DNA of 64,000 nucleotides, from NCBI GenBank assembly GCA_964386665.1, contig CAYLQP010000003.1, positions 28,731 through 92,730 of the forward strand, read 5' to 3'. Positions 17,489-56,950 of this stretch are shown piece by piece. The notes below the pieces were generated by a model. The model searched no databases, was not told the DNA's origin, and saw only the letters and a list, made by a program, of their open reading frames with translations. A program made the position numbers and the translations under genes. The first letter of the stretch is position 1; the number at the start of each line of letters is the position of its first letter. Origin of the DNA: an uncultured Candidatus Saccharibacteria bacterium (GTDB lineage: Bacteria > Patescibacteriota > Minisyncoccia > Phycocordibacterales > CAIRYW01).

Positions 17489-18832
17489 TTATTGATTCCC
17501 TAGACTGTTTTTTGTAATGTTGATCTTAGATGTGTTTGATGTGACGCTCGAAAACCAAAATGGAGTGACTATTACTTGGGCTTTTTCGATAATAGGAAAT
17601 TGTGTAAGAATCTTTGGTATTTCTTTCTTTTTTTGACCTACAATTGCGGTTTTTAGCTTCTCATCGTCTAAATGATAGGTAAACCGAACTGTCCCATTAA
17701 ATCCAAACGTAGCGCGTGTTCCCTCTTCTGTAATCGAGACAATCTGCAAACTAGCAAAATCTGGGTTAGTATTAAATCCTTCTTCCAAAGGTATTTGTTT
17801 TTCTTTTGCAAGGACCGCGAGTAGTTCCGTAGCCTTGAATGTAAATGCCTTGATGGTTGCTTTCATCGTTATTTTTGCTTTATCACCTTCATTTACACTT
17901 GAAACTGGCTCAAAGGCTATACGATAAGCACCTTCGAGAAGAATAAATTCTTTTGGTAGTTCAGCTCGCACTTTTGCAATAATTGCTGTTTCGAGCTCTT
18001 TTTTCATTTCTGTTTCAAGTCCCAAAAGAGCTTCTGCTTCAATGACAGGTACTGTACCTTCCATACCTCCAAGCATTAACGTCTTTGATCGAGCATAAAA
18101 CCCATTAAACTTTGGTGTACCTTTAAATCCAGGGATTGTAAAATCAGAAAGAGGTATATTAAAACGAGCACCAGCTTCATCCGCAGTTACAGCCACCTCA
18201 ACACTTCCTGGAACAATTTTACCAGAAACAGTCTTCTTACCAGGAACTATGACTGATTTATCGATTCTAAATATATGTCCATTTTGATCTTCTAGTCTCG
18301 TTCCAGCAACGAGTTGTTGTGTAGCTGTACTGAAGTTATTGAATACAACAACGGTTCCTTTTGCTTTGGCAGAGACTTCTTTTTGACCCTTGGCTTCAAC
18401 CACCTTTGAAACTTCGTCACTAAGCTCCACGGTATTGAACCGGAAAGAAGCTTCTTGGTTCGAATCACTTTCAGCAAAAAAAGATTCATTTTCAATTGTA
18501 AATGTTGCTTTTTTTAGATCGATAACAACTTCGGTTTTAGAAAACAACCATAATAACGTCCCAACCAAGAGCACCAATGCTGAAAAAGCGACGAGCCACA
18601 TTGTTTTGCCAGATGTTTGGTTTTGTTTTTTGAAAGATGAGACAGACTCGGTATCAGTAAAGACATCCTCATCAGGCGTATCAAATACTTCTTCTTTTGT
18701 AAGTTTTCTTCTTGGTTTTGAAACTCGTTCGTTTACATCAGATGCTTCAACATTGAGTCGTTTATGAGATAACGGAATATCTCGTATTGAGCGTTTTTCT
18801 GATGGGATAATATCTCTTAGTGAACTTTTCAT
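17489..18832 (-). CDS. Bitopic membrane protein with large extracytoplasmic domain (hypothetical)
   Basis: About 75-aa cytoplasmic N-terminus, one TM helix (MWLVAFSALVLLVGTLLWLF), then a ~350-aa soluble domain. Confidence 0.45.
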   Translation of the reverse strand: MKSSLRDIIPSEKRSIRDIPLSHKRLNVEASDVNERVSKPRRKLTKEEVFDTPDEDVFTDTESVSSFKKQNQTSGKTMWLVAFSALVLLVGTLLWLFSKTEVVIDLKKATFTIENESFFAESDSNQEASFRFNTVELSDEVSKVVEAKGQKEVSAKAKGTVVVFNNFSTATQQLVAGTRLEDQNGHIFRIDKSVIVPGKKTVSGKIVPGSVEVAVTADEAGARFNIPLSDFTIPGFKGTPKFNGFYARSKTLMLGGMEGTVPVIEAEALLGLETEMKKELETAIIAKVRAELPKEFILLEGAYRIAFEPVSSVNEGDKAKITMKATIKAFTFKATELLAVLAKEKQIPLEEGFNTNPDFASLQIVSITEEGTRATFGFNGTVRFTYHLDDEKLKTAIVGQKKKEIPKILTQFPIIEKAQVIVTPFWFSSVTSNTSKINITKNSLGNQ

Positions 18833-18882: not shown

Positions 18883-20055
18883 TTATAACATCTGAATATA
18901 CAAAACCGAAGTTGCAAGGACTGTCTCAAGAGATGAATTGTGGACAGTCTCCTCATATGTGACAAACTGTTCAAGATCTTTGTGTGTGAAAAATAATCCC
19001 TTAAATCCATCAGTAGTGAAAGTGTGGTTTATGTATTCTTCCGACAAGAACCATTTGGCAAGTAGATGTGTCTCAAAACTATTATCTGCAAATATAACCG
19101 TGTTTGGTAATAAAATGTTTTTGTTTAAATGCTGAAATGCTTGTCCCAAAAGTTCCTTGAGTACGTGTTGTGCCTCAGCAAAAAGCTTCAAGAGCTCGGA
19201 TTTCTTTTGATCAGTAAGCCCATTAGTTCGATACAGTTTAAGAAAACTGTATGCTTCTGTCTTTGAACAATCAAATCTCTTCATTATTAGTTCAAGTATG
19301 TACTGTTTTCCATATGGCACCGATACACTTGATTCAATAGAACCATTTGAGATATGGATCATCTCAATAACATGAGCTTCTGGTAATATCAGAATATAGT
19401 CTTTCTCTTTGATATACTCTGACATTACTGAAAAAGTTGATAATGAATATGTGTGAACAAAGATTTCAAAGTTAGGTAAAAAGATACTGATTGTTTCGGT
19501 AAGTTGCTTGTACAAATCTTCTTCAACTACCGATACAAATCCTTTATATTCGAGTGATGAAACCCTTCGTCCAATCGGATCTTTGATGATATAACCATTA
19601 GCCTTAATAGAAACAACCTTTTTTTCGATATGAATACCATTTACAAGCACCTGATCAAATAGTTTTTCGGATTGTTGTTCAAGTATTTCTGGTGTCAGTA
19701 CAAATGAAGTAGTATCAGTGAACACGTGTGTTGTGGTTTTAGATAGGTACCAAGGAACCCCTAAAAACACATGGGTATACTTGAGATTAATATCTTCCTT
19801 CATTGTCTGAATATGCACAAGTCCTTCTTGCATAATAAGTTCGGCACTACGTTTGAGTACAACAAGCATTCGAGGAACTAAATGGGATCTGTCGAGCTCA
19901 TTGTGAACTGGTATAGACATTCGATGAACAAAGAGAACGTGAGGGAGTTTACCTGTTTCAAATTTTACAATGGCCGAAATAATTTCCCCACTTTCAATAC
20001 AAAAAATAACTGAGGTTTCGTCTTTAATGATTTTTTTTTGAAACAAATGTAACAC
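18883..20055 (-). CDS. Hypothetical protein, possibly a divergent actin-like (ASKHA, FtsA/PilM-like) fold
   Basis: N-terminal VIFCIESGEIISAIVKF (phosphate-1-like) and a later IHISNGSIESSVSVPYG (phosphate-2-like), but the catalytic Asp residues are not conserved. Confidence 0.35.
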   Translation of the reverse strand: MLHLFQKKIIKDETSVIFCIESGEIISAIVKFETGKLPHVLFVHRMSIPVHNELDRSHLVPRMLVVLKRSAELIMQEGLVHIQTMKEDINLKYTHVFLGVPWYLSKTTTHVFTDTTSFVLTPEILEQQSEKLFDQVLVNGIHIEKKVVSIKANGYIIKDPIGRRVSSLEYKGFVSVVEEDLYKQLTETISIFLPNFEIFVHTYSLSTFSVMSEYIKEKDYILILPEAHVIEMIHISNGSIESSVSVPYGKQYILELIMKRFDCSKTEAYSFLKLYRTNGLTDQKKSELLKLFAEAQHVLKELLGQAFQHLNKNILLPNTVIFADNSFETHLLAKWFLSEEYINHTFTTDGFKGLFFTHKDLEQFVTYEETVHNSSLETVLATSVLYIQML

Positions 20056-22665: not shown

Positions 22666-23304
22666 ATGAAGGCATTAAAAAATATTTTATCTCCAAAAGA
22701 ATTTCAATTACTAAAAAAACTCAACACTCCAATCAAGATTCAAAACTTTCTTGATACACTCCCTATCAACTTTGAAAAGAAAGCTGAAACGTATATGTCA
22801 CCTCGTCGGGTCCTTCAAGAAAAAAAAGCAATGTGTATTGAAGGTGCAATGCTTGCGGGAGTATGCTTGTGGCTACAAGGAGAAGAACCACTTCTCCTTG
22901 ACCTCAAGAGTTATAACGGTGATGATCACGTTGTTGCTATCTACAAACAAAATGGCTATTTCGGTGCTATCAGCAAGACGAACCACGCCACCCTTCGATT
23001 CCGTGATCCTGTGTACAAAACAATTCGAGAGTTGGCGACATCATACTTCCACGAATACTTTGATGTGAAAACAGGAGAAAAGATCCTTCGAAGCTTCTCT
23101 AAACCCTTTAACCTTCGAAAGAAATACGGTACAACGTGGATTACTCGAATGGATGAAATGTTCGATGTAGCAAATGATTTAGATACGTCTCCTCATATTA
23201 TGTTTACCTGCAAAGCCAACCTAAAACACCTTCGCTCTGCCGACAAAATGGAACTAAAGGCAGGCAACATTCTAGAATGGAAGAAAACCAACAAAAGAAC
23301 GTGA
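22666..23304 (+). CDS. Hypothetical protein, possible papain-like/transglutaminase-like Cys-His peptidase
   Basis: Candidate nucleophile Cys in KKAMCIEGAMLAG and a downstream His in DDHVVAIY. The motif-level resemblance is weak. Confidence 0.35.
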   Translation: MKALKNILSPKEFQLLKKLNTPIKIQNFLDTLPINFEKKAETYMSPRRVLQEKKAMCIEGAMLAGVCLWLQGEEPLLLDLKSYNGDDHVVAIYKQNGYFGAISKTNHATLRFRDPVYKTIRELATSYFHEYFDVKTGEKILRSFSKPFNLRKKYGTTWITRMDEMFDVANDLDTSPHIMFTCKANLKHLRSADKMELKAGNILEWKKTNKRT

Positions 23305-27958: not shown

Positions 27959-28930
27959 TTATTCCTTGAGTTTAGATACATACTCTCTCAAAATCCCCAT
28001 CGCTTCTTTTGCATTTGGTGCATCCATTAGCGCGATCCGTAGATCGCTTGCGTTTTCGAAGCTTTGGATATAACTTTTGAAATGTTTTTTCATAAGGGCA
28101 AAGTTTTTTGTCGTCCCTAAAATCTCATCAAAAAGTTCTATATGAAGAAGAAGTGCTTCAAGCTGAGATTTGAGATCCTTTGCTTTGCCTTCTTTGCTAA
28201 ATAGAAATGGATTTCCAAATATTCCACGTCCTATCATCACTCCATCACATCCGGTTTCTTTGACTCGTTCTCGTGCTTCATCGAGGTTTTTGACATCTCC
28301 GTTACCGAGAATAAGTGTTTGTGGTGCTAATTCATCTCGAAGACCTACTACTTGTTTTACAAACTCCCAGCGTGCAGGAACTTTGGACATTTCTTTGCGT
28401 GTTCGAGCATGGATGGTTAATGCCTGAATGTCTGCTTTAAGTAAAATTGGAATCCATTTTTCAATCTCAACTGTGTTGTAACCAATTCGAGTTTTGACAG
28501 ATAAAGGAAGAGTTGGCGCACCACGTTTTGCCGCTTCGATTACACTGAGCGCAAGTTCTGGATTTTTTATCATTGCAGAACCGCTTTTTTGTTTTTCGAT
28601 ACTTTTGTCAGGACAACCCATATTGATATCAATTCCATCAAACCCGAGTTTCTCTACAAGAGCCGCTGCAATCTCCATATGTTCTGGATTTGAGCCAAAA
28701 AGTTGAGCGACAATTGGTCTTTCGCTTTCATCGTATTCGAGGTCTTTGAGAAGCTTTTTCTTCCCTTCTTCGGTTGCACGTACAAGCCCGTCCGCTGAAA
28801 CAAATTCAGTCCACGTGACGTCTGGCTTACCGTATGTGGCAATCACTTTTCGAAAAGACGCATCTGTCACATCCGCCATCGGCGCAAGGACAAAAAAAGG
28901 TTTTTTTAATTTTGACCAAAAGTTTTTCAT
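27959..28930 (-). CDS. dus: tRNA-dihydrouridine synthase
   Basis: …VLAPMADVTD…RKV… and the TIM-barrel Dus signature. Confidence 0.85.
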   Translation of the reverse strand: MKNFWSKLKKPFFVLAPMADVTDASFRKVIATYGKPDVTWTEFVSADGLVRATEEGKKKLLKDLEYDESERPIVAQLFGSNPEHMEIAAALVEKLGFDGIDINMGCPDKSIEKQKSGSAMIKNPELALSVIEAAKRGAPTLPLSVKTRIGYNTVEIEKWIPILLKADIQALTIHARTRKEMSKVPARWEFVKQVVGLRDELAPQTLILGNGDVKNLDEARERVKETGCDGVMIGRGIFGNPFLFSKEGKAKDLKSQLEALLLHIELFDEILGTTKNFALMKKHFKSYIQSFENASDLRIALMDAPNAKEAMGILREYVSKLKE

Positions 28931-32911: not shown

Positions 32912-33769
32912 TTAAAATGCAGATGTGGAAACACTTTTCATTACTCCCGAAGATGTGTGTTTCTGTTTAAAAAAAACTTTTGTTCCGAAACGAACATCGA
33001 TATATTCAAGAGAAGACGGGTTCGGAGACACTTTTTTAAATTCATTTGATGCAAAAAGGGTCTTTATCACCTTGATTGTTTCCTCTGATTTTTTTGTGAG
33101 ATCAACCTTGATTTTGAGTCCACCAGAAAGAGTAAGAATAGTCTCCCGCAAAGTAACAACATCAATACGTTCTGTTACAAGCGTATACTGCAAAAGAGCT
33201 TCGGTTATACGAAAAACTTCTTTTAAAAGAGCTTCATCCAAAAAGGTCTTTCCAAGAGGATTAGCATCAGTAATAATCCCTGTGAATATCTGATACACCC
33301 CACCAGAAAAGACAGGGGCCTGCGAAAATACGAGCCCAGCCGCATCAATAAAAAAACATTCTTTTTCTGTCTGACACCACAGCGCATAACTCCCTCGTTC
33401 TTTTATCTTGATTTCAAGGGTGTTTTTGTTAACCTGCATCTGCAATTCTTCTACCCGGCCAAATTCTTTTTGAATGGCATTTGTTAGTTCACCTTCTGGG
33501 TAGACTAATCTATTTTTTTTAGGAATAACAAACAAGTACTCTGACTCAAGGGTTTTGTGTACGAGTTCTTTGATGTGTTCCGCTTCAATAATCTGATTAC
33601 CAGAAACAGACACATCAGTGATATACAAAAACGGCGCCCGAAATACAAAAAATAAAATAAGTACGCACACAACGCACACAGAAAAAAATATTGAAAGAAA
33701 AATAATTCGTTTTCTTTTTTTCTCTTTTATTAGTTTTGAAGAAACAAGGGGGGTGCGTCGAGACTGCAT
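32912..33769 (-). CDS. ftsQ: FtsQ/DivIB-like cell-division protein (POTRA domain)
   Basis: Basic cytoplasmic N-terminus, one TM helix (IIFLSIFFSVCVVCVLILFFVF), then a POTRA-like …YITDVSVSGNQII…. The start is placed at the internal Met to avoid overlap with serS. Confidence 0.5.
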   Translation of the reverse strand: MQSRRTPLVSSKLIKEKKRKRIIFLSIFFSVCVVCVLILFFVFRAPFLYITDVSVSGNQIIEAEHIKELVHKTLESEYLFVIPKKNRLVYPEGELTNAIQKEFGRVEELQMQVNKNTLEIKIKERGSYALWCQTEKECFFIDAAGLVFSQAPVFSGGVYQIFTGIITDANPLGKTFLDEALLKEVFRITEALLQYTLVTERIDVVTLRETILTLSGGLKIKVDLTKKSEETIKVIKTLFASNEFKKVSPNPSSLEYIDVRFGTKVFFKQKHTSSGVMKSVSTSAF

Positions 33770-33785
33770 ACAAGTTTTTTTTGAG

Positions 33786-35069
33786 CTAGGTTCTCGTGAT
33801 TTTTGTTTTTCCAAACATCCACTTTTGAAGAACATCAGGAATAAGAATACTTCCATCTGCTTGCTGATAATTTTCCATAATAGCAATTAGAGTCCGTCCA
33901 ACCGCAACTACTGTTGCATCATTCATATGAACACTTTCAAGTCTTCCATCAGATCGTTTCACTCTTGTACCGAGACGGCGTGGTTGAAATCCTCCAATAC
34001 AATCAGCACTGTGTGTTTCTCGATACTTATCTTGTCCTGGCATCCACGTCTCAATATCGATTTGTCTATAATCAGGAAATCCCATATCTCCAGTACACAC
34101 CGCAACTACCTGATAAGGCAGTTTTAGACTACGAAGAATATATTCTTGTATTGCAACAAGAAACTCTTGTTCAGAGAGAGAATGTTCAGGAAGAGAAAAC
34201 ACTTCTGCCTCTAGTTTATCGAACTGATGCACTCGAAGTATTCCTTTTGTGTCTTTTCCGTAGCTTCCTGCTTCACGTCTAAATGCAGTTGAATATCCAG
34301 CATAACGAATCGGTAAATCTTTTTCATCAAATATCTCATCCATATGCATTGGACCAAGAGCATGTTCCGCAGAACCAACAAGCATTAAGTCGTCTTCTGG
34401 AAACATATAGTGTTCTTCAGGGGTAAGGAAGCGTGCCATTCGGTTTTGCACTGCTGGTTTTACAAACACAGGTGGAATAACAGGAATAAATGGATTTACA
34501 TCAAGAGTCACTCCCGCATCAGTTGCAATCTTTTGAAGTGTTTCTTTGTTTACCAATGTTTCAAGACAAAACTGCAACAATGCAAATTGAAGCAATGCTA
34601 AATCTCCTTTCAAATATCCAAACCGACTTCCCGCTACTTCGGTTGCAGTTTCAATGTCTAAAATATCCAAATCAGCACCAAGTTCAAAATGTTCTTTTGG
34701 AGTAAAGCTAAACGTTGGTTTCTCACCCCACTGTCGAATGATTTTGTTTTCAGTATCATCTTTTCCTATTGGAGTATCAGGTGAAGGAATATTTGGAACT
34801 TTGAGCATAAGTGCCATAAAGGTTTTATCAGCTTCTTTAAATTGTGCTTCAAGAGACTCGCTTTCGGCTTTGAGTTTTTGACCTAGTTCAACATCTCTGT
34901 TTTGTTGAGCGAGATTTCTTTTGCTATTGAGCTCATCGAGCTGTGTTCGTAAATCTTTTTTCTTTTCAAACAAAGTAAGCAACTCATCGATACTAATATC
35001 GCGGTTTTTGTTCTTGCAGGCAAGTTCTACAATTTCTTTATTTTCTTTTATAAATTTAATGTCGAGCAT
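33786..35069 (-). CDS. serS: Seryl-tRNA synthetase
   Basis: N-terminal coiled-coil arm and class II motifs (…TAFRREAGS…, …GFPDYRQIDIETWMPG…). Confidence 0.9.
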   Translation of the reverse strand: MLDIKFIKENKEIVELACKNKNRDISIDELLTLFEKKKDLRTQLDELNSKRNLAQQNRDVELGQKLKAESESLEAQFKEADKTFMALMLKVPNIPSPDTPIGKDDTENKIIRQWGEKPTFSFTPKEHFELGADLDILDIETATEVAGSRFGYLKGDLALLQFALLQFCLETLVNKETLQKIATDAGVTLDVNPFIPVIPPVFVKPAVQNRMARFLTPEEHYMFPEDDLMLVGSAEHALGPMHMDEIFDEKDLPIRYAGYSTAFRREAGSYGKDTKGILRVHQFDKLEAEVFSLPEHSLSEQEFLVAIQEYILRSLKLPYQVVAVCTGDMGFPDYRQIDIETWMPGQDKYRETHSADCIGGFQPRRLGTRVKRSDGRLESVHMNDATVVAVGRTLIAIMENYQQADGSILIPDVLQKWMFGKTKITRT

Positions 35070-49311: not shown

Positions 49312-49602
49312 TATGCGCGACATAAAGTGAATGAAATACAGAAGTGATCTTTCTTATTTCTGAGCCAAGGGACTAATCGGGTAACAACCCCGATACCCTG
49401 CGTCGAGGCTGTTGATTTAAAAACCATTATGTTATAAACGTTTTTCTTCAAAACACAACAAAAACACAAATTTGACTACTTAACAAATAAATAGTATAAT
49501 AAGTCCAGTCCAAAAGAGTGTCTTTGTGTTGCCTTCCTGGCACCACATCGTAACAACTTACGCTCTTTGACACACTACTCAACGAAAAAACCAACTCGTC
49601 AC

Positions 49603-50886
49603 ATGAAAATTATCTTCTACCTCCTCTTTGCAGCCATCGTGCTGCTTCTAGGAACGACTCTTAGTCTGCTCATTTGGGCAGGCATGTACGTCTTCCGTAC
49701 CTCAACTTCAATGGGGTTTACATACCTCATAGGAGTAACGATCTCCGCAACATTCCTCATTATCCTCGGATGGTGGTGGTATAAAACGGAGCTGCCAAAA
49801 ATTTGGCGCTCCCTTGCCGAGAAAGAAAAGTTCATCACACTGGCTCCAGAAAAACATTTCGTCCCAATTGAAAGAGCGGGTCGGTTTGTTTGGGGATTCA
49901 AATGTGAAGGAGGACTAATCATTCTCCTAATTCCACGCCCCTCAAGACAAGCAGGAGACCCTTGCTTGATAACTGTAATGCCAGAAAATATCTTTTCCGG
50001 GCTTGACTTAATCTTGTACCACTATTTCGTGGGACAGGGTTACGTCTGGCTAGGTTTTGATGCAAGTTCACAGGGGACAACTCGTGTAGGATCTCTTGCA
50101 ATACCCAAGGCAAGGTTGCAAAAAAGAGAGGGTCTTGATGAAGTTCAGATCAAAGTGGAGCCCATCAAGGCTCTTCGACTCACCTTCCAACGGTACGTCG
50201 TTGTGTCTGAAATCGAAACCACTGACGGACACAAGCTTCGTCTTTTGGCCCTTGCTATAGTAACTGTCACGGACCCCTACCTTGCTTGGTATGGTCTTGG
50301 AGGGAAAGCATACGAAACCCTCGATACGATAGTGGCAACACTAATTCGTACAGAGGGGGAAAAACACTCACTCGTCTCGATGTATCAGTCTGGTGCAAAC
50401 GGACAGGATGAAATCGAAGAGGAGATAAAAGAAGGATCCATAGAGACTGAAAGAAAATTAGGAATGAAGATCACTCTTACCATTGAAGAATGGGAAGATG
50501 ATGCTGGTCCTGGATTTCGAATCTTCATTGGTCGGGTCCAAACCGCTCAACAAGAGACGGCTAACCAGATCGCAGAGATGGAAATGCGAATCCGTATCGC
50601 AGAAAAGAAGGGAGATGAGCTCGCAGCCCAAGCACTCCTTGAAGTGGAACGAGCAAAGCTTGAAATACAGCGAAAGCTCGCAAACGAAGAGGAATACAAG
50701 GCTCTTCTTGCCCTCGCAGGAGGAAAAGAAGATGCTGTCATACACATAGTTCTCAAACAACAGCTTGGAGACGATCTCTACAAGAAGTATGTCGACGCTG
50801 ATGCACTAAAGCACACAAAGGTGCAAGTGCTTGGCACTAACGCAACCCCACTCATTAACCTACCACAACCACCAACTCAACCATGA
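49603..50886 (+). CDS. SPFH/band-7 (flotillin/stomatin-like) membrane protein
   Basis: Two N-terminal TM helices, an SPFH core (…LAIVTVTDPYLAWYGLG…) and a C-terminal EA-rich coiled coil (…AEMEMRIRIAEKKGDELAAQALLEVERAKLEIQ…). The region is GC-rich (~50%). Confidence 0.55.
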   Translation: MKIIFYLLFAAIVLLLGTTLSLLIWAGMYVFRTSTSMGFTYLIGVTISATFLIILGWWWYKTELPKIWRSLAEKEKFITLAPEKHFVPIERAGRFVWGFKCEGGLIILLIPRPSRQAGDPCLITVMPENIFSGLDLILYHYFVGQGYVWLGFDASSQGTTRVGSLAIPKARLQKREGLDEVQIKVEPIKALRLTFQRYVVVSEIETTDGHKLRLLALAIVTVTDPYLAWYGLGGKAYETLDTIVATLIRTEGEKHSLVSMYQSGANGQDEIEEEIKEGSIETERKLGMKITLTIEEWEDDAGPGFRIFIGRVQTAQQETANQIAEMEMRIRIAEKKGDELAAQALLEVERAKLEIQRKLANEEEYKALLALAGGKEDAVIHIVLKQQLGDDLYKKYVDADALKHTKVQVLGTNATPLINLPQPPTQP

Positions 50887-51704
50887 ATCCAGTCGTAATA
50901 ACCATTCTTGCATTCGCAGTGCCACTTCTGGTGGTACTGTGGTTTGCAATAAAATGGTTCAGAGGCCTTACATACCGCTCTTCCTCTGGAGCTGGTAACA
51001 GGTCCAAATGGACCATCCTGTCCATCGCGACCCTTGTGCTGGCGACGGCCTTTGGCGGATGGATAGGGCTTAGCCTTTCGGGGCTGGCATTGTCCTTTGT
51101 GTGGATGCACTTTATGCCAGGGCAAACCTGGTTCAAGTGGTCGACAGCAGCTTGCGGACTCATACTGCTTATGTCTCTAGTGCTCAACCAAAGCGCCAAG
51201 ACCAAAGCAGCGAAAGAAACGCGGATAGCGGAGGCAAGCCAAGGCTTCCGCAAGTCTGAGCTTATCGCTCGTGCGAAGGCACGAGGCAAGATAGTGAACG
51301 AGGACGCTGCCATCTGGGAAGGCACCTTAGAGACGTTTGATGTGGCAACACATCGATACGTTCCAGGATGGTCTGGGCAAGAGGTGGAAATCCTTGTCTG
51401 GGAAGAAGATGAATTCATCCTGCAGATGGAAATGCAGGATGGAAGCATACTCCACTTGGAGTATGACGAAGCATCCATTGGTCCCCAAAAGGGCGAGTGG
51501 ACGTGGTCATCGAGGATCCGGAGAGAGGAAGGAAGGTTTAGCCTCTCGACCGTATTGTCCGGACCGGCGTCGAGCAAGGGATTTGGTGGGATCATCACAG
51601 GTCTCCCACTCCCTAAAGGTCAAACAGGGGTGTTCCCGCCCCTGGAGTTCCGGTTCATCCCTAACCGGACACTTGCGGATGTAATCCGCAAGTTCGTTGA
51701 GTAG
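50883..51704 (+). CDS. Polytopic membrane protein translationally coupled to the SPFH gene (possible NfeD-like partner)
   Basis: ATGA overlap with the upstream stop. 3-4 N-terminal TM helices, then a ~170-aa soluble domain. Confidence 0.45.
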   Translation: MNPVVITILAFAVPLLVVLWFAIKWFRGLTYRSSSGAGNRSKWTILSIATLVLATAFGGWIGLSLSGLALSFVWMHFMPGQTWFKWSTAACGLILLMSLVLNQSAKTKAAKETRIAEASQGFRKSELIARAKARGKIVNEDAAIWEGTLETFDVATHRYVPGWSGQEVEILVWEEDEFILQMEMQDGSILHLEYDEASIGPQKGEWTWSSRIRREEGRFSLSTVLSGPASSKGFGGIITGLPLPKGQTGVFPPLEFRFIPNRTLADVIRKFVE

Positions 51705-51716
51705 TGTCCCACGCAA

Positions 51717-51748
51717 GCGGAGGATCCCCTGGATCCTCCGCTTTTTTA
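51717..51748 (+). terminator. Rho-independent terminator
   Basis: gcggaggatcc-cctg-ggatcctccgc + T6. Confidence 0.65.
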
Positions 51749-51798
51749 ATATTCAAAAAAATGCCTCGTTCGTATTATAAACAATCATATTTAACACC

Positions 51799-51830
51799 TC
51801 TCCAAACACAAAACACCACGCTCGCGCGTG
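51799..51830. terminator. Bidirectional terminator between convergent units
   Basis: aaacaccacgc-tcgc-gcgtggtgttt with an A-run 5' and a T-run 3'. Confidence 0.55.
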
Positions 51831-51848
51831 GTGTTTTGAAAGTTGTTT

Positions 51849-52169
51849 TTATTGACGAGGCAAGATTTTATCCACGTTTTGTATAGTACTTGGATCACTA
51901 CTGATTCCGAATGTATTGAGTACGATTCGAACAATCGTAAATGTCATCATCATAATAGCCATTCCAATAATACCCCACATAATCTGATTGGCTCCTTTTT
52001 GTCTTACCTCTTCATTATCTGCTCCAGAAATATAACCACGAACTCCCCAAAGAAAAACAAACAACGCAACAACGAACATTACGACAATAAGCGGATTTAC
52101 GATAGCTCCATTGAGCTTCAAGATAAATTCGGTTACTGGTGTTGCAGCTGCTGCGATGTTTTGTTCCAT
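51849..52169 (-). CDS. VirB2/TrbC-like two-helix hairpin membrane protein, paralog 1 (no signal peptide)
   Basis: Conserved module …IVNPLIVVMFVVALFVFLWGV-RGYISGADNEEVRQKG-ANQIMWGIIGMAIMMMTF…. Confidence 0.5.
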   Translation of the reverse strand: MEQNIAAAATPVTEFILKLNGAIVNPLIVVMFVVALFVFLWGVRGYISGADNEEVRQKGANQIMWGIIGMAIMMMTFTIVRIVLNTFGISSDPSTIQNVDKILPRQ

Positions 52170-52179
52170 TCTATGAAGG

Positions 52180-52533
52180 TTAGTTAGGGATGATAACTCG
52201 TGGAAGATCAGGAGAAGTAGTCACATCTCCAGAACCGAAGATTGAACTTCGAAGGATATTTACAAATCCCCATACAGCTGTCATCACAAAGAGTGCAATG
52301 ATACCAAAGATAATCATTCCTCGTGCTGCTGCTCGCGCTTCTTCGTCTCCTCCTGCTGTTACATACTTAAGTACCCCCACCAAGAAAAGAAGAAGTGCTA
52401 TTCCAACAATAAGTGGAATAAGTCTATCAATAATACCTGCAAGCGAACTAATTCCCGCTTCGATATTTGAAAAATCCGCCGCCATTGAAAGACCTGGCAC
52501 AAGCGCTACGACTGCTAACAAAAATTTTTTCAT
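52180..52533 (-). CDS. VirB2/TrbC-like secreted membrane protein, paralog 2
   Basis: Signal peptide MKKFLLAVVALVPGLSMA|AD, then LIPLIVGIALLLFLVGVL-KYVTAGGDEEARAAARG-MIIFGIIALFVMTAVWGF. Confidence 0.55.
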   Translation of the reverse strand: MKKFLLAVVALVPGLSMAADFSNIEAGISSLAGIIDRLIPLIVGIALLLFLVGVLKYVTAGGDEEARAAARGMIIFGIIALFVMTAVWGFVNILRSSIFGSGDVTTSPDLPRVIIPN

Positions 52534-52567
52534 TTTTAATTTGATTAATCTAATAATTTTGATTTAT

Positions 52568-52585
52568 TCTGTTTAAGAACAGAAA
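52568..52585 (-). promoter_or_regulatory. Hairpin plus TACAAT-containing promoter-like region in the only gap of the array
   Basis: ttctgtt-ctta-aacagaa, with tttttgttgctacaatat about 30 bp upstream of paralog 2. Confidence 0.3.
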
Positions 52586-52657
52586 TCACTAATACATATA
52601 TTGTAGCAACAAAAAAACGAAATTGCTATGCACCAAATACAAAACTGTGGATTACAG

Positions 52658-53050
52658 TTATTGACAAGTAGCCTTGAAACTACCTCCCTGTGCTGCAAAC
52701 TGTGGTACTCCAAATGAATCGCCGAGACCAAAACTTGCAACAAAAATTTTGAGTATTCCCCAAATAGACACCATAAAGAAAAATCCAACGATTCCATAAA
52801 TCATCATTTTGTTTCCGGCTGACCGTTTTTCTTCATTATCTCCGTGACTAACATATTTGATAAGTCCCGTCAAAAACGCTCCAACTGCAATCACAACAAC
52901 AAAAGGAATAAAATCAAGAACAATTTTAACAAAAATACAAATAATCTCCTTAAAACTTGTTGGCGCAGCTGGCTTCCCTGTACTTTGAGCAAAAAGTAAA
53001 ACAGGAAGTGTTAGAAGTGTAATAATGAATGAAAAGAATATATGTTTCAT
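52658..53050 (-). CDS. VirB2/TrbC-like secreted membrane protein, paralog 3
   Basis: Start taken at the internal MKHIFF. Signal peptide …LLFA|QS, then …FIPFVVVIAVGAFLTGLI-KYVSHGDNEEKRSAGNK-MMIYGIVGFFFMVSIWGI…. Confidence 0.55.
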   Translation of the reverse strand: MKHIFFSFIITLLTLPVLLFAQSTGKPAAPTSFKEIICIFVKIVLDFIPFVVVIAVGAFLTGLIKYVSHGDNEEKRSAGNKMMIYGIVGFFFMVSIWGILKIFVASFGLGDSFGVPQFAAQGGSFKATCQ

Positions 53051-53051
53051 A

Positions 53052-53429
53052 TTATTTAAGTGGGAGATAGTTAGGGATAGCAGTATCAGTTGAAAAGAAA
53101 GTTCGAACCACCAGATTAGTAATCCCCCAGAAAGCAACCATCACAAACAATACAACGAGTCCATAGATCATCACGTGACGACCATTTTGCCTTGCTTCTT
53201 CGTCATCTCCCGATTTTATAAACTTAATAACACCAGCAAGAAATGTTAAAAGAGCCACTGCAATAAGGGCAGGAATAAACCCTTTCATATTCCCCCATGC
53301 GAAGGTAAAAAACACATCACTGATAGTTTCTGGTGTTGTGGGAGGAGTATAGTTTGGACCCACTGCACATGTAAGCAGAGGTGTTAAGAAAAATGTAAAT
53401 ACTAGTATGTGACTAAAATATTTTTGCAT
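53052..53429 (-). CDS. VirB2/TrbC-like secreted membrane protein, paralog 4 (possible lipoprotein signal LLTC)
   Basis: Start MQKYFSHIL; …FIPALIAVALLTFLAGVI-KFIKSGDDEEARQNGRH-VMIYGLVVLFVMVAFWGI…. Confidence 0.55.
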   Translation of the reverse strand: MQKYFSHILVFTFFLTPLLTCAVGPNYTPPTTPETISDVFFTFAWGNMKGFIPALIAVALLTFLAGVIKFIKSGDDEEARQNGRHVMIYGLVVLFVMVAFWGITNLVVRTFFSTDTAIPNYLPLK

Positions 53430-53430
53430 A

Positions 53431-53844
53431 TTATTTGAATGGTGTTGTTGATTGTGGTGGAAGTGCTGGCATTTCAAATGAAGAGGCTGGGAAAATAGTT
53501 GAGTACAAAATCTTTACCAGTCCCCACACCGACGTCATTACAAAAAGTGCAATAATTCCAAAAAGCATAAGTCCTCTTCCTGCTTCTCTCGCTTCTTCGT
53601 TATCCCCACTTTTGACATATTTGAGAACCCCTACAATAAACATCACAAGAGCAAGCGCAAACAAGAAAGGAATAACGTATTTAGAAATAAGACAGATAGA
53701 AAACGTAAATAGTTGTCCAATGTCATTTGGTTGTCTACACGCAGATGCTGCAGGGGCAGATGTCGGATTCTGTGCTGATACAAACAAAGGAAGAATGACT
53801 AATGTGGCTGTAAAGAAAATAGATAACAATGTTTTTTTGTGCAT
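53431..53844 (-). CDS. VirB2/TrbC-like secreted membrane protein, paralog 5
   Basis: Signal peptide …LFVSA|QN, then …VIPFLFALALVMFIVGVL-KYVKSGDNEEAREAGRG-LMLFGIIALFVMTSVWGL…. Confidence 0.55.
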   Translation of the reverse strand: MHKKTLLSIFFTATLVILPLFVSAQNPTSAPAASACRQPNDIGQLFTFSICLISKYVIPFLFALALVMFIVGVLKYVKSGDNEEAREAGRGLMLFGIIALFVMTSVWGLVKILYSTIFPASSFEMPALPPQSTTPFK

Positions 53845-53849
53845 ATAGA

Positions 53850-54218
53850 TTATGTTAATTGATTAACTGTTCCTTCGATAATTTTGAAGATAACCTTTGC
53901 TCCAAGAAGGACTGCGGTTCCTACCATCGCCCAGGTAATAGTTTTGCGTCCATTTGAAACCTTCTCTTCATCTCCTGCTGCAGTCACCAAAAGAAATCCT
54001 CCGTACATTATACCCAACACCGAGACAATAACTCCGAGTTGAATAAGTCCATCAACAATAGATGCAAAGAACCCTGAAAGACTAGTGGCTTCAATTGGAT
54101 TTTGGATTGTATTTGAATTTTTGCCCCCAGATGCTTCCGCTAATACAAACAAAGGAAAAACCCACAAGGTCAAAATTATAAATGATTTATTTTTAAAAAA
54201 TGTGAGTGTTTTTTTCAT
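53850..54218 (-). CDS. VirB2/TrbC-like secreted membrane protein, paralog 6
   Basis: Start MKKTLTFF. Signal peptide …FVLA|EA, then …LIQLGVIVSVLGIMYGGFLLV-TAAGDEEKVSNGRK-TITWAMVGTAVLLGAKVI…. Confidence 0.5.
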   Translation of the reverse strand: MKKTLTFFKNKSFIILTLWVFPLFVLAEASGGKNSNTIQNPIEATSLSGFFASIVDGLIQLGVIVSVLGIMYGGFLLVTAAGDEEKVSNGRKTITWAMVGTAVLLGAKVIFKIIEGTVNQLT

Positions 54219-54228
54219 ACGTATTTCA

Positions 54229-54972
54229 TTAACCCAATAAACTAAATCCTTCTTTTGCCCCAAGAACCGTAAGTAATGTTTTTACAAGAAGCCATCCCAT
54301 AAGCACAAACAAGATTCCCATAAACGTTTTACTAAAAATGCCGTGGGCTTGCTCTATTTTACCACCATTTCCAAAAGCTGTCATATAAAGAAAACCTGCA
54401 TACGCAAACGCAATGGCTGACAATGATGCAGCAATATAAACCAAAAATTCAATAATACGGTTTATTAAAATAATAATATCTCTCCAACCACATCCTCCAG
54501 CATCTTTCCCAAACGTTGGATTATCTACGCAGTTTGGGGGTACTATCTGGAAATTTTCGTTCACAGGATCTCCTGTATTTTTGATATCAAGCTCTATTCG
54601 ATCTTCTTGAGAGAGACCTGGTACAAATGAAGGATCAGTTAATTCTTCATCCGCATAACTACTAAATTCATTTATAAAATCTTCTCTAAATCCTGCGTTA
54701 CTTTCATACAAACCATCAAGTTCGTCTGGATCATATTGACTATAATCATCGTGTGAATTAATAAAATCAATTAATAATTCACGAATAAGCGCTCCTTGCG
54801 GATCAGTTGGCTCATCTCCAAATGAATAATTTTCAAAATACCAAAGAACAGTTTCTTGAGGAAGTGTAGAGATTTGTTGTGCCTTTATATGAGACGAAAC
54901 TACTCCTCCTCCAACAAAAAAGAGGGTTGCAAAAAAAATGGAATATATCTTTTTATTTATTGTATTCATCAA
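54229..54972 (-). CDS. Larger secreted acidic protein carrying the same C-terminal two-helix hairpin module, paralog 7
   Basis: Signal peptide, a ~150-aa D/E-rich ectodomain, then …IEFLVYIAASLSAIAFAYAGFLYM-TAFGNGGKIEQAHG-IFSKTFMGILFVLMGWLLV…. Confidence 0.5.
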   Translation of the reverse strand: MMNTINKKIYSIFFATLFFVGGGVVSSHIKAQQISTLPQETVLWYFENYSFGDEPTDPQGALIRELLIDFINSHDDYSQYDPDELDGLYESNAGFREDFINEFSSYADEELTDPSFVPGLSQEDRIELDIKNTGDPVNENFQIVPPNCVDNPTFGKDAGGCGWRDIIILINRIIEFLVYIAASLSAIAFAYAGFLYMTAFGNGGKIEQAHGIFSKTFMGILFVLMGWLLVKTLLTVLGAKEGFSLLG

Positions 54973-56266
54973 GTATTTCTTTTAATTCTTTTTGGAATTG
55001 GACAACTGCACCCAACACTAATTCTTTTCCACTTGTTACTGATTCTATCATACTCTTAAATAAATTTGCGGTAGTAGCATAATCAGGATCAAGCCAAGAC
55101 TTTGACCATAATGCTGATTTCCAGACCACATCAAGTACCCCACTTCCAGGTGGGTTAGCAAGCATATCACGACGGACTGGTGCCATTTTGTTTACATCAG
55201 AGAACTTTTCTTGAAAAGTAGTGTTTGTAAGAACAAAAGCGGTATTAAGCATTGCAGCTTTGTTTGGTGATGCATCAACAATTGCGATTCCATACACATT
55301 ACCAAAAGTAACTTTCTTAGCTGCTCCGGTTGCTTGTGGGAGAAATGCAATATCAAGGTTAAGGTTTGGATTTTTTGACCGGAGTGTCGCAGCTTCTGAT
55401 CCAAAACCAATATACATCGCACTATCTGATCCCAAAAACATAGTAAGCGCATCTGGCAAAGCTCTTGACCAACTAAACAAAGGAGAGGCCGGATCAGCAA
55501 ACTCCGTGAAGTATGTAAGCACTGTTTGAAGTGGACTTACTTCAAGTCCAGTAAGAGTTTCGAGAACATCTTCTTGAAATTTATTTTCTTTTTGAAGGAC
55601 TATTTTGCCTCCTGATTGAAGTGTCATAGCACCAATAATTTCTTTTGCACGTGGAATGTTTTGATATTCCCCAAGTGCAATAGCATTTTTTGCGATACTC
55701 TTATCTTCTTTTTTTTCAGTAAATATAGGCACAAGCTTTGTGAGCTCTTCCCAAGTTTCTGGAGTCTTTGTAATCAGTTTTGAATTAAACATATCTCTGT
55801 TCCAATACAACACCAACGGATCAATCAAAAACGGTATTGCATAAGTACCTGACGGTGCAAAAAATATTTCACCAGCTTCACTATACGTATCTTTGAGTGT
55901 TCGCTCTGAAACAGCAGTCCAAGAAATAAGTGTGAGGCGCTTTTGAAGTTTCATCAACAATCTATCAGGAATAATAAGGCCGTCAGGAATACCTGATTTA
56001 TCGAGAAGTGCAGTAACCAAATCTTGTTCAAGTTCTTCTTCGCTTTGCTTCTCAACGTATTCAAGATTGGTTGTTCCTGGAGCTCCAATGTTCGCTTCTT
56101 CTACTATTGGAGTGAATTTATTTTTTTCGATAAGTCCCCAAATAACAACACGAGGGTTTTCTACAGCACCTTTTTTAGTACTTGAAACAGAAAACAAAAT
56201 CACCCCGACAACAGCAAAAAAAATAAATACTCCAGTGACTATGATTTGTATGTTTTCTGATTTCAT
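54953..56266 (-). CDS. Membrane-anchored extracellular solute-binding-protein-like (SBP family 1/MalE-like fold) protein
   Basis: N-terminal TM anchor, then a ~400-aa periplasmic-binding-protein-like domain. Its stop overlaps the start of paralog 7 by 20 nt. No permease or ATPase lies nearby. Confidence 0.45.
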   Translation of the reverse strand: MKSENIQIIVTGVFIFFAVVGVILFSVSSTKKGAVENPRVVIWGLIEKNKFTPIVEEANIGAPGTTNLEYVEKQSEEELEQDLVTALLDKSGIPDGLIIPDRLLMKLQKRLTLISWTAVSERTLKDTYSEAGEIFFAPSGTYAIPFLIDPLVLYWNRDMFNSKLITKTPETWEELTKLVPIFTEKKEDKSIAKNAIALGEYQNIPRAKEIIGAMTLQSGGKIVLQKENKFQEDVLETLTGLEVSPLQTVLTYFTEFADPASPLFSWSRALPDALTMFLGSDSAMYIGFGSEAATLRSKNPNLNLDIAFLPQATGAAKKVTFGNVYGIAIVDASPNKAAMLNTAFVLTNTTFQEKFSDVNKMAPVRRDMLANPPGSGVLDVVWKSALWSKSWLDPDYATTANLFKSMIESVTSGKELVLGAVVQFQKELKEILDEYNK

Positions 56267-56325
56267 TATTTTTGAAATAGGTTCTTTCTATTTTATACGA
56301 GAGTATCCAAAATAGAAAGCGAGTT

Positions 56326-56853
56326 TTACACTTTTTTAAATATGAGCGCATAATGATATCGATGTGCATCAATCTCTTTTTGCAACTCAAATGATTCTGC
56401 TTCAAATAATTTGATTGCATCAGATTGAAATACAATATGTTCTGACTTTGGACCAATACCTCCAAACGAATCAAGCCACTCAACAAATAGCACTCTTCCT
56501 CCTTTTTTTAACAAACGAAAAGCTTCCTTGATAGTTTGTTGCTTCTGTTCAATGGTAAAAAACACATTTGCCATCACCACAAGATCAAGTGATCCGTCTC
56601 GAAGAGGAGTTCCATTGTATGTTTCGATATTACCTGACAAAATCTCGACAGTATGTAACGCTTGTGCGGTAATATCATTAAATATCTTTTTTAATAAGTC
56701 TTTATTACTTCCAATACAAAATAACTTACCATCATCACGAAGGGTTCGAGCTATCTCAAGAGGAAAAAAAGATTCATATGCCTCAAAAACTCCGATATAC
56801 ATTCCAGGTGAAATGTGTGTGTGAGCTATAATTTGTTTTGGATTTAAGAACAT
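56326..56853 (-). CDS. Class I SAM-dependent methyltransferase
   Basis: …LFCIGSNKDLL… glycine-rich motif I and …LLKKGGRVLFVEW… motif. The track start at 56922 would run into the terminator palindrome, so a later Met is preferred. Confidence 0.55.
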   Translation of the reverse strand: MFLNPKQIIAHTHISPGMYIGVFEAYESFFPLEIARTLRDDGKLFCIGSNKDLLKKIFNDITAQALHTVEILSGNIETYNGTPLRDGSLDLVVMANVFFTIEQKQQTIKEAFRLLKKGGRVLFVEWLDSFGGIGPKSEHIVFQSDAIKLFEAESFELQKEIDAHRYHYALIFKKV

Positions 56854-56895
56854 AAAATATGTACCTTCAATTATATAATGAAAAGAGAATAAATA

Positions 56896-56950
56896 AAAAT
56901 GCCGTGTTTTTTGTTTGACCAATAGTCAAACAAAAAACACGGCATTTTTA
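56896..56950. terminator. Bidirectional terminator (22-bp perfect palindrome) downstream of gyrA
   Basis: aatgccgtgttttttgtttgac-caata-gtcaaacaaaaaacacggcatt flanked by A and T runs. Confidence 0.6.

Follow-up and report, generated by a model that had tools for sequence, protein, structure and literature searches.

The 64,000-nucleotide (nt) stretch analyzed here, referred to below as the window (positions 28,731 to 92,730 of contig CAYLQP010000003.1), encodes on its minus strand a methyltransferase, a membrane-anchored solute-binding protein (SBP), and a tandem array of seven paralogous small membrane proteins related to the T4SS_pilin family of Pfam (PF18895). The array genes were numbered g1 to g7 from the 3′ end of the operon, and positions in the array are counted from g7. 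The open reading frame (ORF) listing and re-translation confirmed that all seven genes at 51849–54972, with the lengths predicted by a first-pass annotation of this DNA, are real (Table 1). Alignment of the seven proteins also bore out that they share a C-terminal hairpin module of ca. 75 amino acids, while their N-terminal parts cannot be aligned. The module consists of a lead-in, a first transmembrane (TM) helix (TM1), a K-Y-V-x-x-G-D-x-E-E-A-R loop, and a second helix (TM2), and the pairwise identity of the paralogues in this core was 3–56%. A profile of the family matched exactly g1–g7, and no other ORF of the window. The near-zero spacing described previously was found at five junctions; it does not hold between g3 and g2, the gaps from g1 to g7 being 10, 124, 1, 1, 5, and 10 nt.

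Table 1 Features of the operon carrying the pilin-like array, with positions in the window.
Feature	Position	Strand	Length	Description
Candidate -10 box	56870-56875	-		TATAAT; putative operon promoter read from the sequence, 17 nt upstream of the methyltransferase ATG
Methyltransferase	56326-56853	-	175 amino acids	Class I S-adenosylmethionine (SAM)-dependent methyltransferase; from ATG at 56853; Pfam Methyltransf_11/25/31
SBP	54953-56266	-	437 amino acids	MalE-type solute-binding-protein-like; TM helix 3-29, flexible linker, full two-lobe SBP domain
g7	54229-54972	-	247 amino acids	Position 1: signal peptide, 134-amino-acid acidic ectodomain, divergent pilin hairpin (residues ~170-240)
g6	53850-54218	-	122 amino acids	Position 2: signal peptide and hairpin; member nearest TrbC/VirB2
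g5	53431-53844	-	137 amino acids	Middle group: signal peptide and hairpin
g4	53052-53429	-	125 amino acids	Middle group: signal peptide and hairpin
g3	52658-53050	-	130 amino acids	Middle group: signal peptide and hairpin
g3-g2 intergenic gap	52534-52657	-		Candidate internal promoter: extended -10 TGCTACAAT at 52608-52600
g2	52180-52533	-	117 amino acids	Penultimate orthogroup: signal peptide and hairpin, short mature N-terminus
g1	51849-52169	-	106 amino acids	Last orthogroup: hairpin without signal peptide
GC-core hairpin	51809-51838			A and T runs on either side (CAAAACACCACGC...GCGTGGTGTTTTG); probable operon terminator, usable on both strands

Analysis of hydrophobic segments and inspection of the N-termini by eye agreed with the first-pass annotation in assigning signal peptides to g2, g3, g5, g6, and g7 and none to g1. 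The cleavage sites read by eye (marked by an arrow) were SMA↓A in g2, LFA↓Q in g3, VSA↓Q in g5, VLA↓E in g6, and IKA↓Q in g7. The sequence LLTC of g4 had been taken as a lipobox; it has Thr at position -1 and does not conform to the conserved lipobox [LVI][ASTVI][GAS]C, and the two closest orthologues have Tyr or Phe in place of its Cys, so that g4 was rejected as a lipoprotein. A survey of 429 family members gave 12 lipobox-motif matches, most of them away from the end of the signal peptide. Cleavage of g4 by signal peptidase I at T-C-A↓V-G is a likelier reading of its N-terminus than lipoprotein processing. The class III signal peptide of type IV pilins (G↓F-x-x-x-E) was absent from all seven N-termini, and no N_methyl family was matched. 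In the AlphaFold2 (AF2) model of g6, helices 47–79 and 84–120 are joined by a four-residue turn, with a predicted local distance difference test score (pLDDT) of ~90. This model and the hydrophobic segments of g1–g7 support the proposed architecture of a signal peptide followed by a two-helix hairpin. The long acidic ectodomain reported for g7 was also confirmed; its 134 residues include 30 Asp/Glu and 6 Lys/Arg, with an isoelectric point of 4.05.

Species-representative genomes were scanned with an alignment of the SBP, which gave at least 572 relatives, and the best 80 were analyzed with custom profiles. The coupling between the SBP gene and the array was scored in the 59 of these 80 loci that had at least 4 kb after the SBP gene. 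In every one of the 59, the SBP gene was followed immediately by 4–7 pilin-family ORFs of the same orientation (median unbroken chain, 6), and all loci lacking any pilin ORF had less than 1 kb of sequence left after the SBP gene. The median distance between the SBP gene and the first pilin gene was 3 nt, and the two overlapped in 30 of 81 cases. In 73 of 85 loci, the SBP gene was immediately preceded by the methyltransferase gene, with a median of 8 nt from the methyltransferase stop to the SBP start and an overlap in 22 of 72. These spacings indicate that the methyltransferase, SBP, and pilin genes form one operon, of which the methyltransferase gene is probably the first, given how closely it adjoins or even overlaps the SBP gene in relatives. 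Nine context look-ups held the SBP gene and downstream sequence, and all nine showed one and the same order, with gyrA, the SAM-methyltransferase gene, the SBP gene, and then the pilin array; in most cases, the array was followed by two convergent genes whose function is unknown. The membrane-anchored SBP-like gene had been described as lying immediately upstream of the array and overlapping it. Both are correct, the overlap with g7 being 20 nt, but the gene is more than the mere neighbour it was taken for, as it is an obligatory partner in 59 of 59 loci.

The order of the array is conserved as well. By best hit across 58 arrays, g7 was first in 58, g6 second in 56, g2 penultimate in 51, and g1 last in 49, while g3–g5 formed a middle group whose copy number varied from one to four between species. 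These positions hold across genomes in which the SBP is only ~35% identical. Judging from sequence similarity and gene order, g1–g7 are ancient paralogues at fixed positions, not interchangeable variants. The genes in the last position of 59 arrays encoded a median of 96 amino acids, with two hydrophobic segments and without a signal peptide in 56; the lack of a signal peptide in g1 is therefore a conserved trait. The ectodomains of the first and second members vary widely between lineages (122–541 amino acids). In two loci (L097, 7565–9990; L098, 7553–9990), the first two array members are 365–436 amino acids long; in the first of them, the pilin hairpin bears an FN3-like (Pur_ac_phosph_N) ectodomain. 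A few kb downstream, a Peptidase_S74-domain protein of ~2,400 amino acids is encoded (L097, 14287–20432). In the flank of another Patescibacteria-type locus (L052, 2279–5098, minus strand), we found a 939-amino-acid protein that contains the shoulder and repeat domains of the Major Vault Protein.

The gap before the penultimate gene, which corresponds to the g3–g2 gap, had a median of 101 nt in 59 arrays (interquartile range, 83–124 nt), while all other junctions were 2–12 nt. TATAAT occurred in 30 of 54 such gaps (12.8 ± 3.0 in shuffled sequences), and the extended -10 motif TGnTA[TC]AAT occurred in 14 of 54 (0.9 ± 1.0 in shuffled sequences). Folding of the conserved gap gave no consistent structure (median z, -0.13). 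The enrichment of -10 and extended -10 motifs in this gap of ~100 nt suggests that the last two genes are expressed separately, probably at a higher level. The promoter-like gap upstream of g2 is the one ground on which g2 may be considered a candidate for the abundant (major) subunit.

The SBP matched PF01547 (E 8.8e-14) and also PF13416, and its profile matches in the PDB were sugar SBPs. Its AF2 model (pLDDT 91) matched a trehalose/maltose-binding protein in Foldseek (1eu8; E 6e-21); trehalose/maltose-, sucrose-, and sophoro-oligosaccharide-binding proteins were matched at E ~1e-20 with TM-scores of 0.66–0.70. The partner thus resembles MalE and the trehalose/maltose SBPs in its complete two-lobe fold. 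It differs from them in that it is anchored by a conserved TM helix, has no permease or ATPase gene beside it, and is always followed by pilin-family genes. Genes for an ATP-binding cassette (ABC) permease or ATPase were found neither in the window nor among the conserved neighbour clusters of the 85 loci. Conservation was 0.52 in the TM helix, 0.54 in the domain, and 0.29 in the linker. Within the anchor (residues 1–38), the conserved positions Q7, F14, F17/I18, G21, and F25 lie along one helical face, which is odd for a passive anchor. A TM helix as conserved as the domain, with its conserved positions on one face, hints that this helix may make a specific contact within the membrane.

The PDB matches of the methyltransferase were to uncharacterised methyltransferases only. 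In the window, the spacer between its gene and the SBP gene (56267–56325) is 59 nt long, compared with ~8 nt in most relatives, and contains an 11-bp perfect AT-rich hairpin (CTTTCTATTTT/AAAATAGAAAG). Directly before the candidate TATAAT box, between gyrA and the methyltransferase gene, a perfect palindrome of 20 bp, bordered on either side by T-runs (56900–56944), has the form of a bidirectional terminator. At the other end, where a bidirectional terminator had been described as bounding the array, two hairpins were found between the array and the convergent genes, the GC-core hairpin of Table 1 and a second one at 51715–51743. An Rfam scan of the intergenic spaces gave no match at the gathering score.

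The gathering threshold of PF18895 (26.6 bits) was reached by g1 (27.9 bits), g2 (29.5 bits), g3 (31.0 bits), g5 (26.6 bits), and g6 (33.6 bits). The score of g4 (25.6 bits) was slightly under it, and g7 (13.2 bits), a divergent relative, did not reach it alone. However, g7 is tied to the family because its hairpin matched a family profile built without g7 (hhalign; E 9e-5, probability 59%) and its positional orthologues in other genomes match PF18895. Only g6 matched the TrbC/VirB2 family PF04956 (23.1 bits, E 8.6e-5, model positions 6–96 of 98), below the gathering threshold of 27.9 bits. The family comprises 26,175 cluster representatives at E ≤ 1e-3, and g5 has 156 homologues; some homologues carry the NCBI name "pilin". 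The named homologues were all from metagenome-assembled genomes of Paceibacteria/Parcubacteria (Paceibacterota, Nomurabacteria, Taylorbacteria, and similar), in agreement with the earlier assignment of this DNA to an organism of the Candidate Phyla Radiation (CPR) type. The top matches of the family profile in a library of 1.84 billion proteins (P0241–P0330) were single ORFs with 2–7 consecutive pilin modules and up to 606 amino acids. These multi-module ORFs are either true fusions or neighbouring genes joined by gene calling under a wrong genetic code.

The first-pass annotation had considered the array apparently undescribed. Such arrays of Patescibacteria have already been published (PMC12102498; PMC10633639). 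Using the same Pfam model, Quinonero-Coronel et al. (2025) reported 441 VirB2 arrays of 2–11 genes in 383 Patescibacteria assemblies, with a mean mutual identity of 25% and a maximum of 54% (PMC12102498). The present array, with seven pilin genes in tandem, falls within this description (2–11 pilin genes, either tandem or with one gene in between, low identity, Patescibacteria genome). It resembles the published arrays in consisting of tandem PF18895/PF04956-type genes of low identity (3–56% in the core) on a Patescibacteria chromosome, and many of those arrays are also located away from virB4. On the other hand, the paper mentions no SBP, fixed order, signal-peptide-less terminal member, or internal promoter, and the published arrays are most abundant in Microgenomatia and Saccharimonadia, whereas the present one is from the Paceibacteria group. 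In Southlakia epibionticum ML1, six consecutive PF18895 genes (SEML1_0014–0019) are located within a type IV secretion system (T4SS) cluster and are essential by transposon sequencing (Wang et al. 2023, PMC10633639). Like g1–g7, these are consecutive PF18895 proteins of a CPR epibiont, some with sub-threshold matches to TrbC/VirB2. Unlike g1–g7, they are encoded inside a VirB4/VirB6/PrgI-like cluster with no adjoining SBP gene, while the array in the window is accompanied by SBP and methyltransferase genes and has no T4SS gene nearby. A 2025 review drew attention to the arrays as what may be the first pilus of a monoderm T4SS. In the literature searched, no report connecting a solute-binding protein with these arrays was found. 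Thus, the array type itself is known, and the SBP partnership and the fixed internal order were not found described.

We also compared g1–g7 with pilins outside the CPR. They share with the Gram-negative VirB2/TrbC proteins (PF04956) a Sec signal peptide cut after Ala, a short exposed N-terminus, and two helices with a polar loop. PMC12102498 cites reports of tandem virB2 paralogues in Bartonella and Anaplasma. The differences are that one paralogue matches PF04956, below threshold, that a profile–profile comparison gave a probability of 4.7% (see below), that no virB1, virB3, or virB4 gene is adjacent, and that the organism is a monoderm according to the literature, with no evidence of cyclisation. 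The Mbov_0395 family of the Mycoplasma integrative and conjugative element (ICE) (NF045849 of NCBIfam, "pilin-like conjugal transfer protein") likewise consists of small proteins with two TM helices that belong to a monoderm T4SS of the MPF-FATA type. Six of the seven paralogues matched it at E 9e-7 to 8.5e-3, but their scores of 16–28 bits were below the 40-bit cut-off, and those genes are annotated as ICE conjugal-transfer genes. Further weak NCBIfam matches of the paralogues were to ICE small-membrane-protein models.

By analogy with the VirB2/TraA pilins and with the PF18895 array that is essential in Southlakia and lies in its T4SS cluster, we interpret the hairpin proteins as T4SS-linked, hetero-oligomeric pilus-like or conduit subunits with the SBP as a fixed partner, a reading to which we give a probability of ca. 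0.5. The locus is the distal part of a conserved Paceibacteria operon comprising the methyltransferase gene, the gene for the anchored MalE-type SBP, and those for seven ordered PF18895 proteins. Six members would be exported with a Sec signal peptide, as predicted from their hydrophobic segments, which is most likely removed by signal peptidase I. The mature form would be a two-helix membrane hairpin with the variable N-terminus and the C-tail outside and the K-Y-V-x-x-G-D-x-E-E-A-R loop in the cytoplasm, and g1 is the same hairpin made without a signal peptide. The hairpins may constitute a membrane pool of subunits for a relaxase-less, monoderm-type T4SS encoded elsewhere on the chromosome. 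The fixed positions and the specialised members suggest a hetero-oligomer in which tip or minor subunits are distinct from abundant ones. Minor or tip roles would fall to positions 1 and 2, whose ectodomains vary and are in some cases very large and FN3-like, and the last two genes would encode the abundant subunits. The co-translated SBP would be the fixed partner, possibly with a function in ligand sensing, adhesion, or assembly.

Several observations weigh against this interpretation. As the first-pass annotation had stated, no VirB4, VirD4, prepilin peptidase, or sortase gene is present in the window, which contains no T4SS machinery. Nor was a VirB4-like or other T4SS gene found in the 10 kb around the operon in the related loci that were fetched. 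For this, the large ORFs of the 85 loci were clustered, and Pfam was run on ten of those that fell outside the conserved neighbour clusters; the genes recognised in this way were housekeeping and miscellaneous ones only. Neighbouring virB1, virB3, or virB4 genes, by which a T4SS cluster is recognised, were likewise absent from the window and from these 10-kb surroundings, whereas the authentic virB2 genes on the fetched MPF-T (mating pair formation) plasmids lie between virB1 and virB3. An hhalign comparison of an 81-sequence family alignment with eight annotated alphaproteobacterial VirB2/TrbC proteins of MPF-T plasmids gave a probability of 4.7% over 28 columns, which is weak negative evidence only, because this VirB2 set is narrow (Alphaproteobacteria only); the VirB2 sequence used at the start of the comparison was 99.2% identical to an annotated virB2. 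A PDB profile search with the 81 family members returned no solved pilin, its sole match being a de novo designed channel (E 0.049), and fold searches with the AF2 hairpin returned generic helical hairpins only. Moreover, monoderm T4SSs are not known to form pili, and no pilus depending on these genes has been seen on any Patescibacterium. Thus, the proposal that g1–g7 are VirB2/TrbC-like stands for the PF18895 assignment and the architecture, but it does not extend to a demonstrable homology with authentic VirB2/TrbC, to which their kinship is only remote. We retain the label "VirB2-like" because of the Pfam name, the sub-threshold matches to TrbC and ICE pilins, the shared architecture, and the T4SS context of relatives in other CPR classes. 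VirB4 was reported in 2,417 of 3,035 Patescibacteria assemblies (~80%), and VirB2-like genes were near virB4 in 1,135 of the 1,948 assemblies having both (PMC12102498). Therefore, an array distant from T4SS genes is not unusual.

A hetero-oligomer of hairpins could instead work independently of any T4SS, docking the TM-anchored SBP for the uptake or sensing of a host ligand, with the pilin resemblance reflecting common ancestry. The strict coupling of SBP gene and array through overlapping or 1–12-nt junctions suits such a device, as do a fixed gene order typical of stoichiometric complexes, an SBP anchor helix as conserved as its domain with one conserved face, and a cytoplasmic loop that is the best-conserved part of the hairpin. 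The missing ABC permease and ATPase genes next to the SBP gene, the lack of T4SS genes in the 10 kb around the operon of the related loci fetched, and the fact that direct homology to authentic VirB2 is not demonstrable point the same way. However, the operon contains no energising component, the same Pfam family occurs without an SBP in the essential T4SS cluster of Southlakia, several independent weak matches are all to conjugative pilin-like families, and a transporter of this kind would be without precedent. Although unlikely, a T4SS-independent device is the main rival to the reading above. Somewhat more doubtful still is the broader proposal that the methyltransferase–SBP–hairpin operon, of which the searchable literature gave no description, is a distinct Paceibacteria-wide module. 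In this view, an oligosaccharide-type SBP would cooperate physically with a hetero-oligomer or filament of VirB2-like hairpins as an SBP-coupled pilin conduit, by which cells poor in biosynthesis would sense or take up host-derived molecules, either feeding the distant T4SS or functioning without it.

The first-pass annotation had favored a repertoire in which diversifying selection acts on the exposed N-termini of alternative pilins or adhesin anchors, such as for antigenic variation or host recognition, and the same speculation, on antigenicity and host range, has been offered for the published arrays (PMC12102498). The exposed parts do evolve faster. Identity among g5 orthologues was 38% in the signal peptide, 41% in the mature N-terminus, 69% in TM1, 89% in the loop, 86% in TM2, and 59% in the C-tail, so that the N-termini and C-tails contrast with a loop and TM2 at 86–89%. 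The variation in copy number of the middle group (one to four between species) and in the ectodomain size of the first and second members (122–541 amino acids, FN3-like in L097 and L098) would also fit a repertoire. The ratio of nonsynonymous to synonymous substitution rates (dN/dS) was calculated by the Nei–Gojobori method with two close relatives (L101 and L102), a comparison of low power in which dS is partly saturated. It was 0.01–0.04 in the hairpin, 0.11–0.43 in the mature N-terminus of g5 (ca. 10-fold the value of its hairpin), 0.02–0.06 in that of g4, and 0–0.33 in the C-tails. As dN/dS was below 1 in every segment, there was no sign of the diversifying selection claimed for the hypervariable ectodomains. 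These ratios indicate that constraint is relaxed in some exposed parts and that selection is purifying overall. Furthermore, four orthogroups keep their positions at an SBP identity of ~35%, and a single operon holds all the genes in one orientation, without silent cassettes. The longest DNA shared between paralogues was 49 nt at 65–76% identity, which leaves no substrate for cassette exchange; gene conversion between the paralogues was also considered and rejected, as long similar DNA repeats were not found. With ancient, positionally fixed paralogues and no near-identical DNA repeats, the antigenic-variation reading was not supported, and we consider a diversifying repertoire improbable. It is most improbable that g1–g7 only resemble pilins and are in fact small membrane proteins of unrelated kinds, for example holins or bacteriocin-immunity proteins. 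Although the two-helix hairpin is a generic fold that a structure search does not separate from many others, no holin or immunity family was matched in Pfam, NCBIfam, or PHROGs, a check that had been suggested earlier. In addition, the fetched related loci share a conserved chromosomal housekeeping context with no phage or toxin genes, and the signal peptides are atypical for holins. A holin or phage origin was thus rejected, PHROGs having given neither a holin nor any annotated function; its three matches were weak and to families whose function is unknown.

The remainder of the window is ordinary chromosome, encoding DnaK/DnaJ/GrpE, RpoA, AlaRS, SerRS, TyrRS, a ClpB-like protein, TopA, DprA, ParB, MiaA, the dcw genes, GyrA, Pth, and LepB. 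Downstream of the array lies a GC-rich island of 2.2 kb (49550–51750; 45–54% GC compared with ~37% for the window). It holds two plus-strand ORFs convergent to the array, at 49567–50886 (439 amino acids) and 50883–51704 (273 amino acids), with no match in Pfam, NCBIfam, or the PDB. The 2.2 kb downstream of the array are GC-rich in relatives too, by a median of 6.2 points over the GC content of the locus and by up to 16 points (56 loci), and the convergent pair appears to be fast-evolving genes at a conserved position that are GC-rich across species. We considered the 439-amino-acid ORF as an SPFH/Band 7 protein and rejected this assignment, since neither Pfam, NCBIfam, nor the PDB supported it in the window; one positional equivalent (L099) is a Band_7/SPFH protein. 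Two adjacent minus-strand ORFs (17489–18832 and 18883–20055; 447 and 390 amino acids) had no Pfam or NCBIfam match, and further ORFs of the window without a match are at 1253–2104, 22666–23304, and 32912–33886.

The role of T4SSs and pilin arrays is an open question in the biology of CPR/Patescibacteria, and the arrays are essential in the one species tested. The locus described here adds no new kind of system. The reading of its proteins as antigenic variants, tempting as it was, has been corrected by the comparative result. What the locus provides is a set of handles, namely a fixed subunit order, a last member without a signal peptide, an internal promoter-like gap, and an obligatory MalE-type partner. 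Among these, the SBP partner and the fixed order of the array are the points worth following up.

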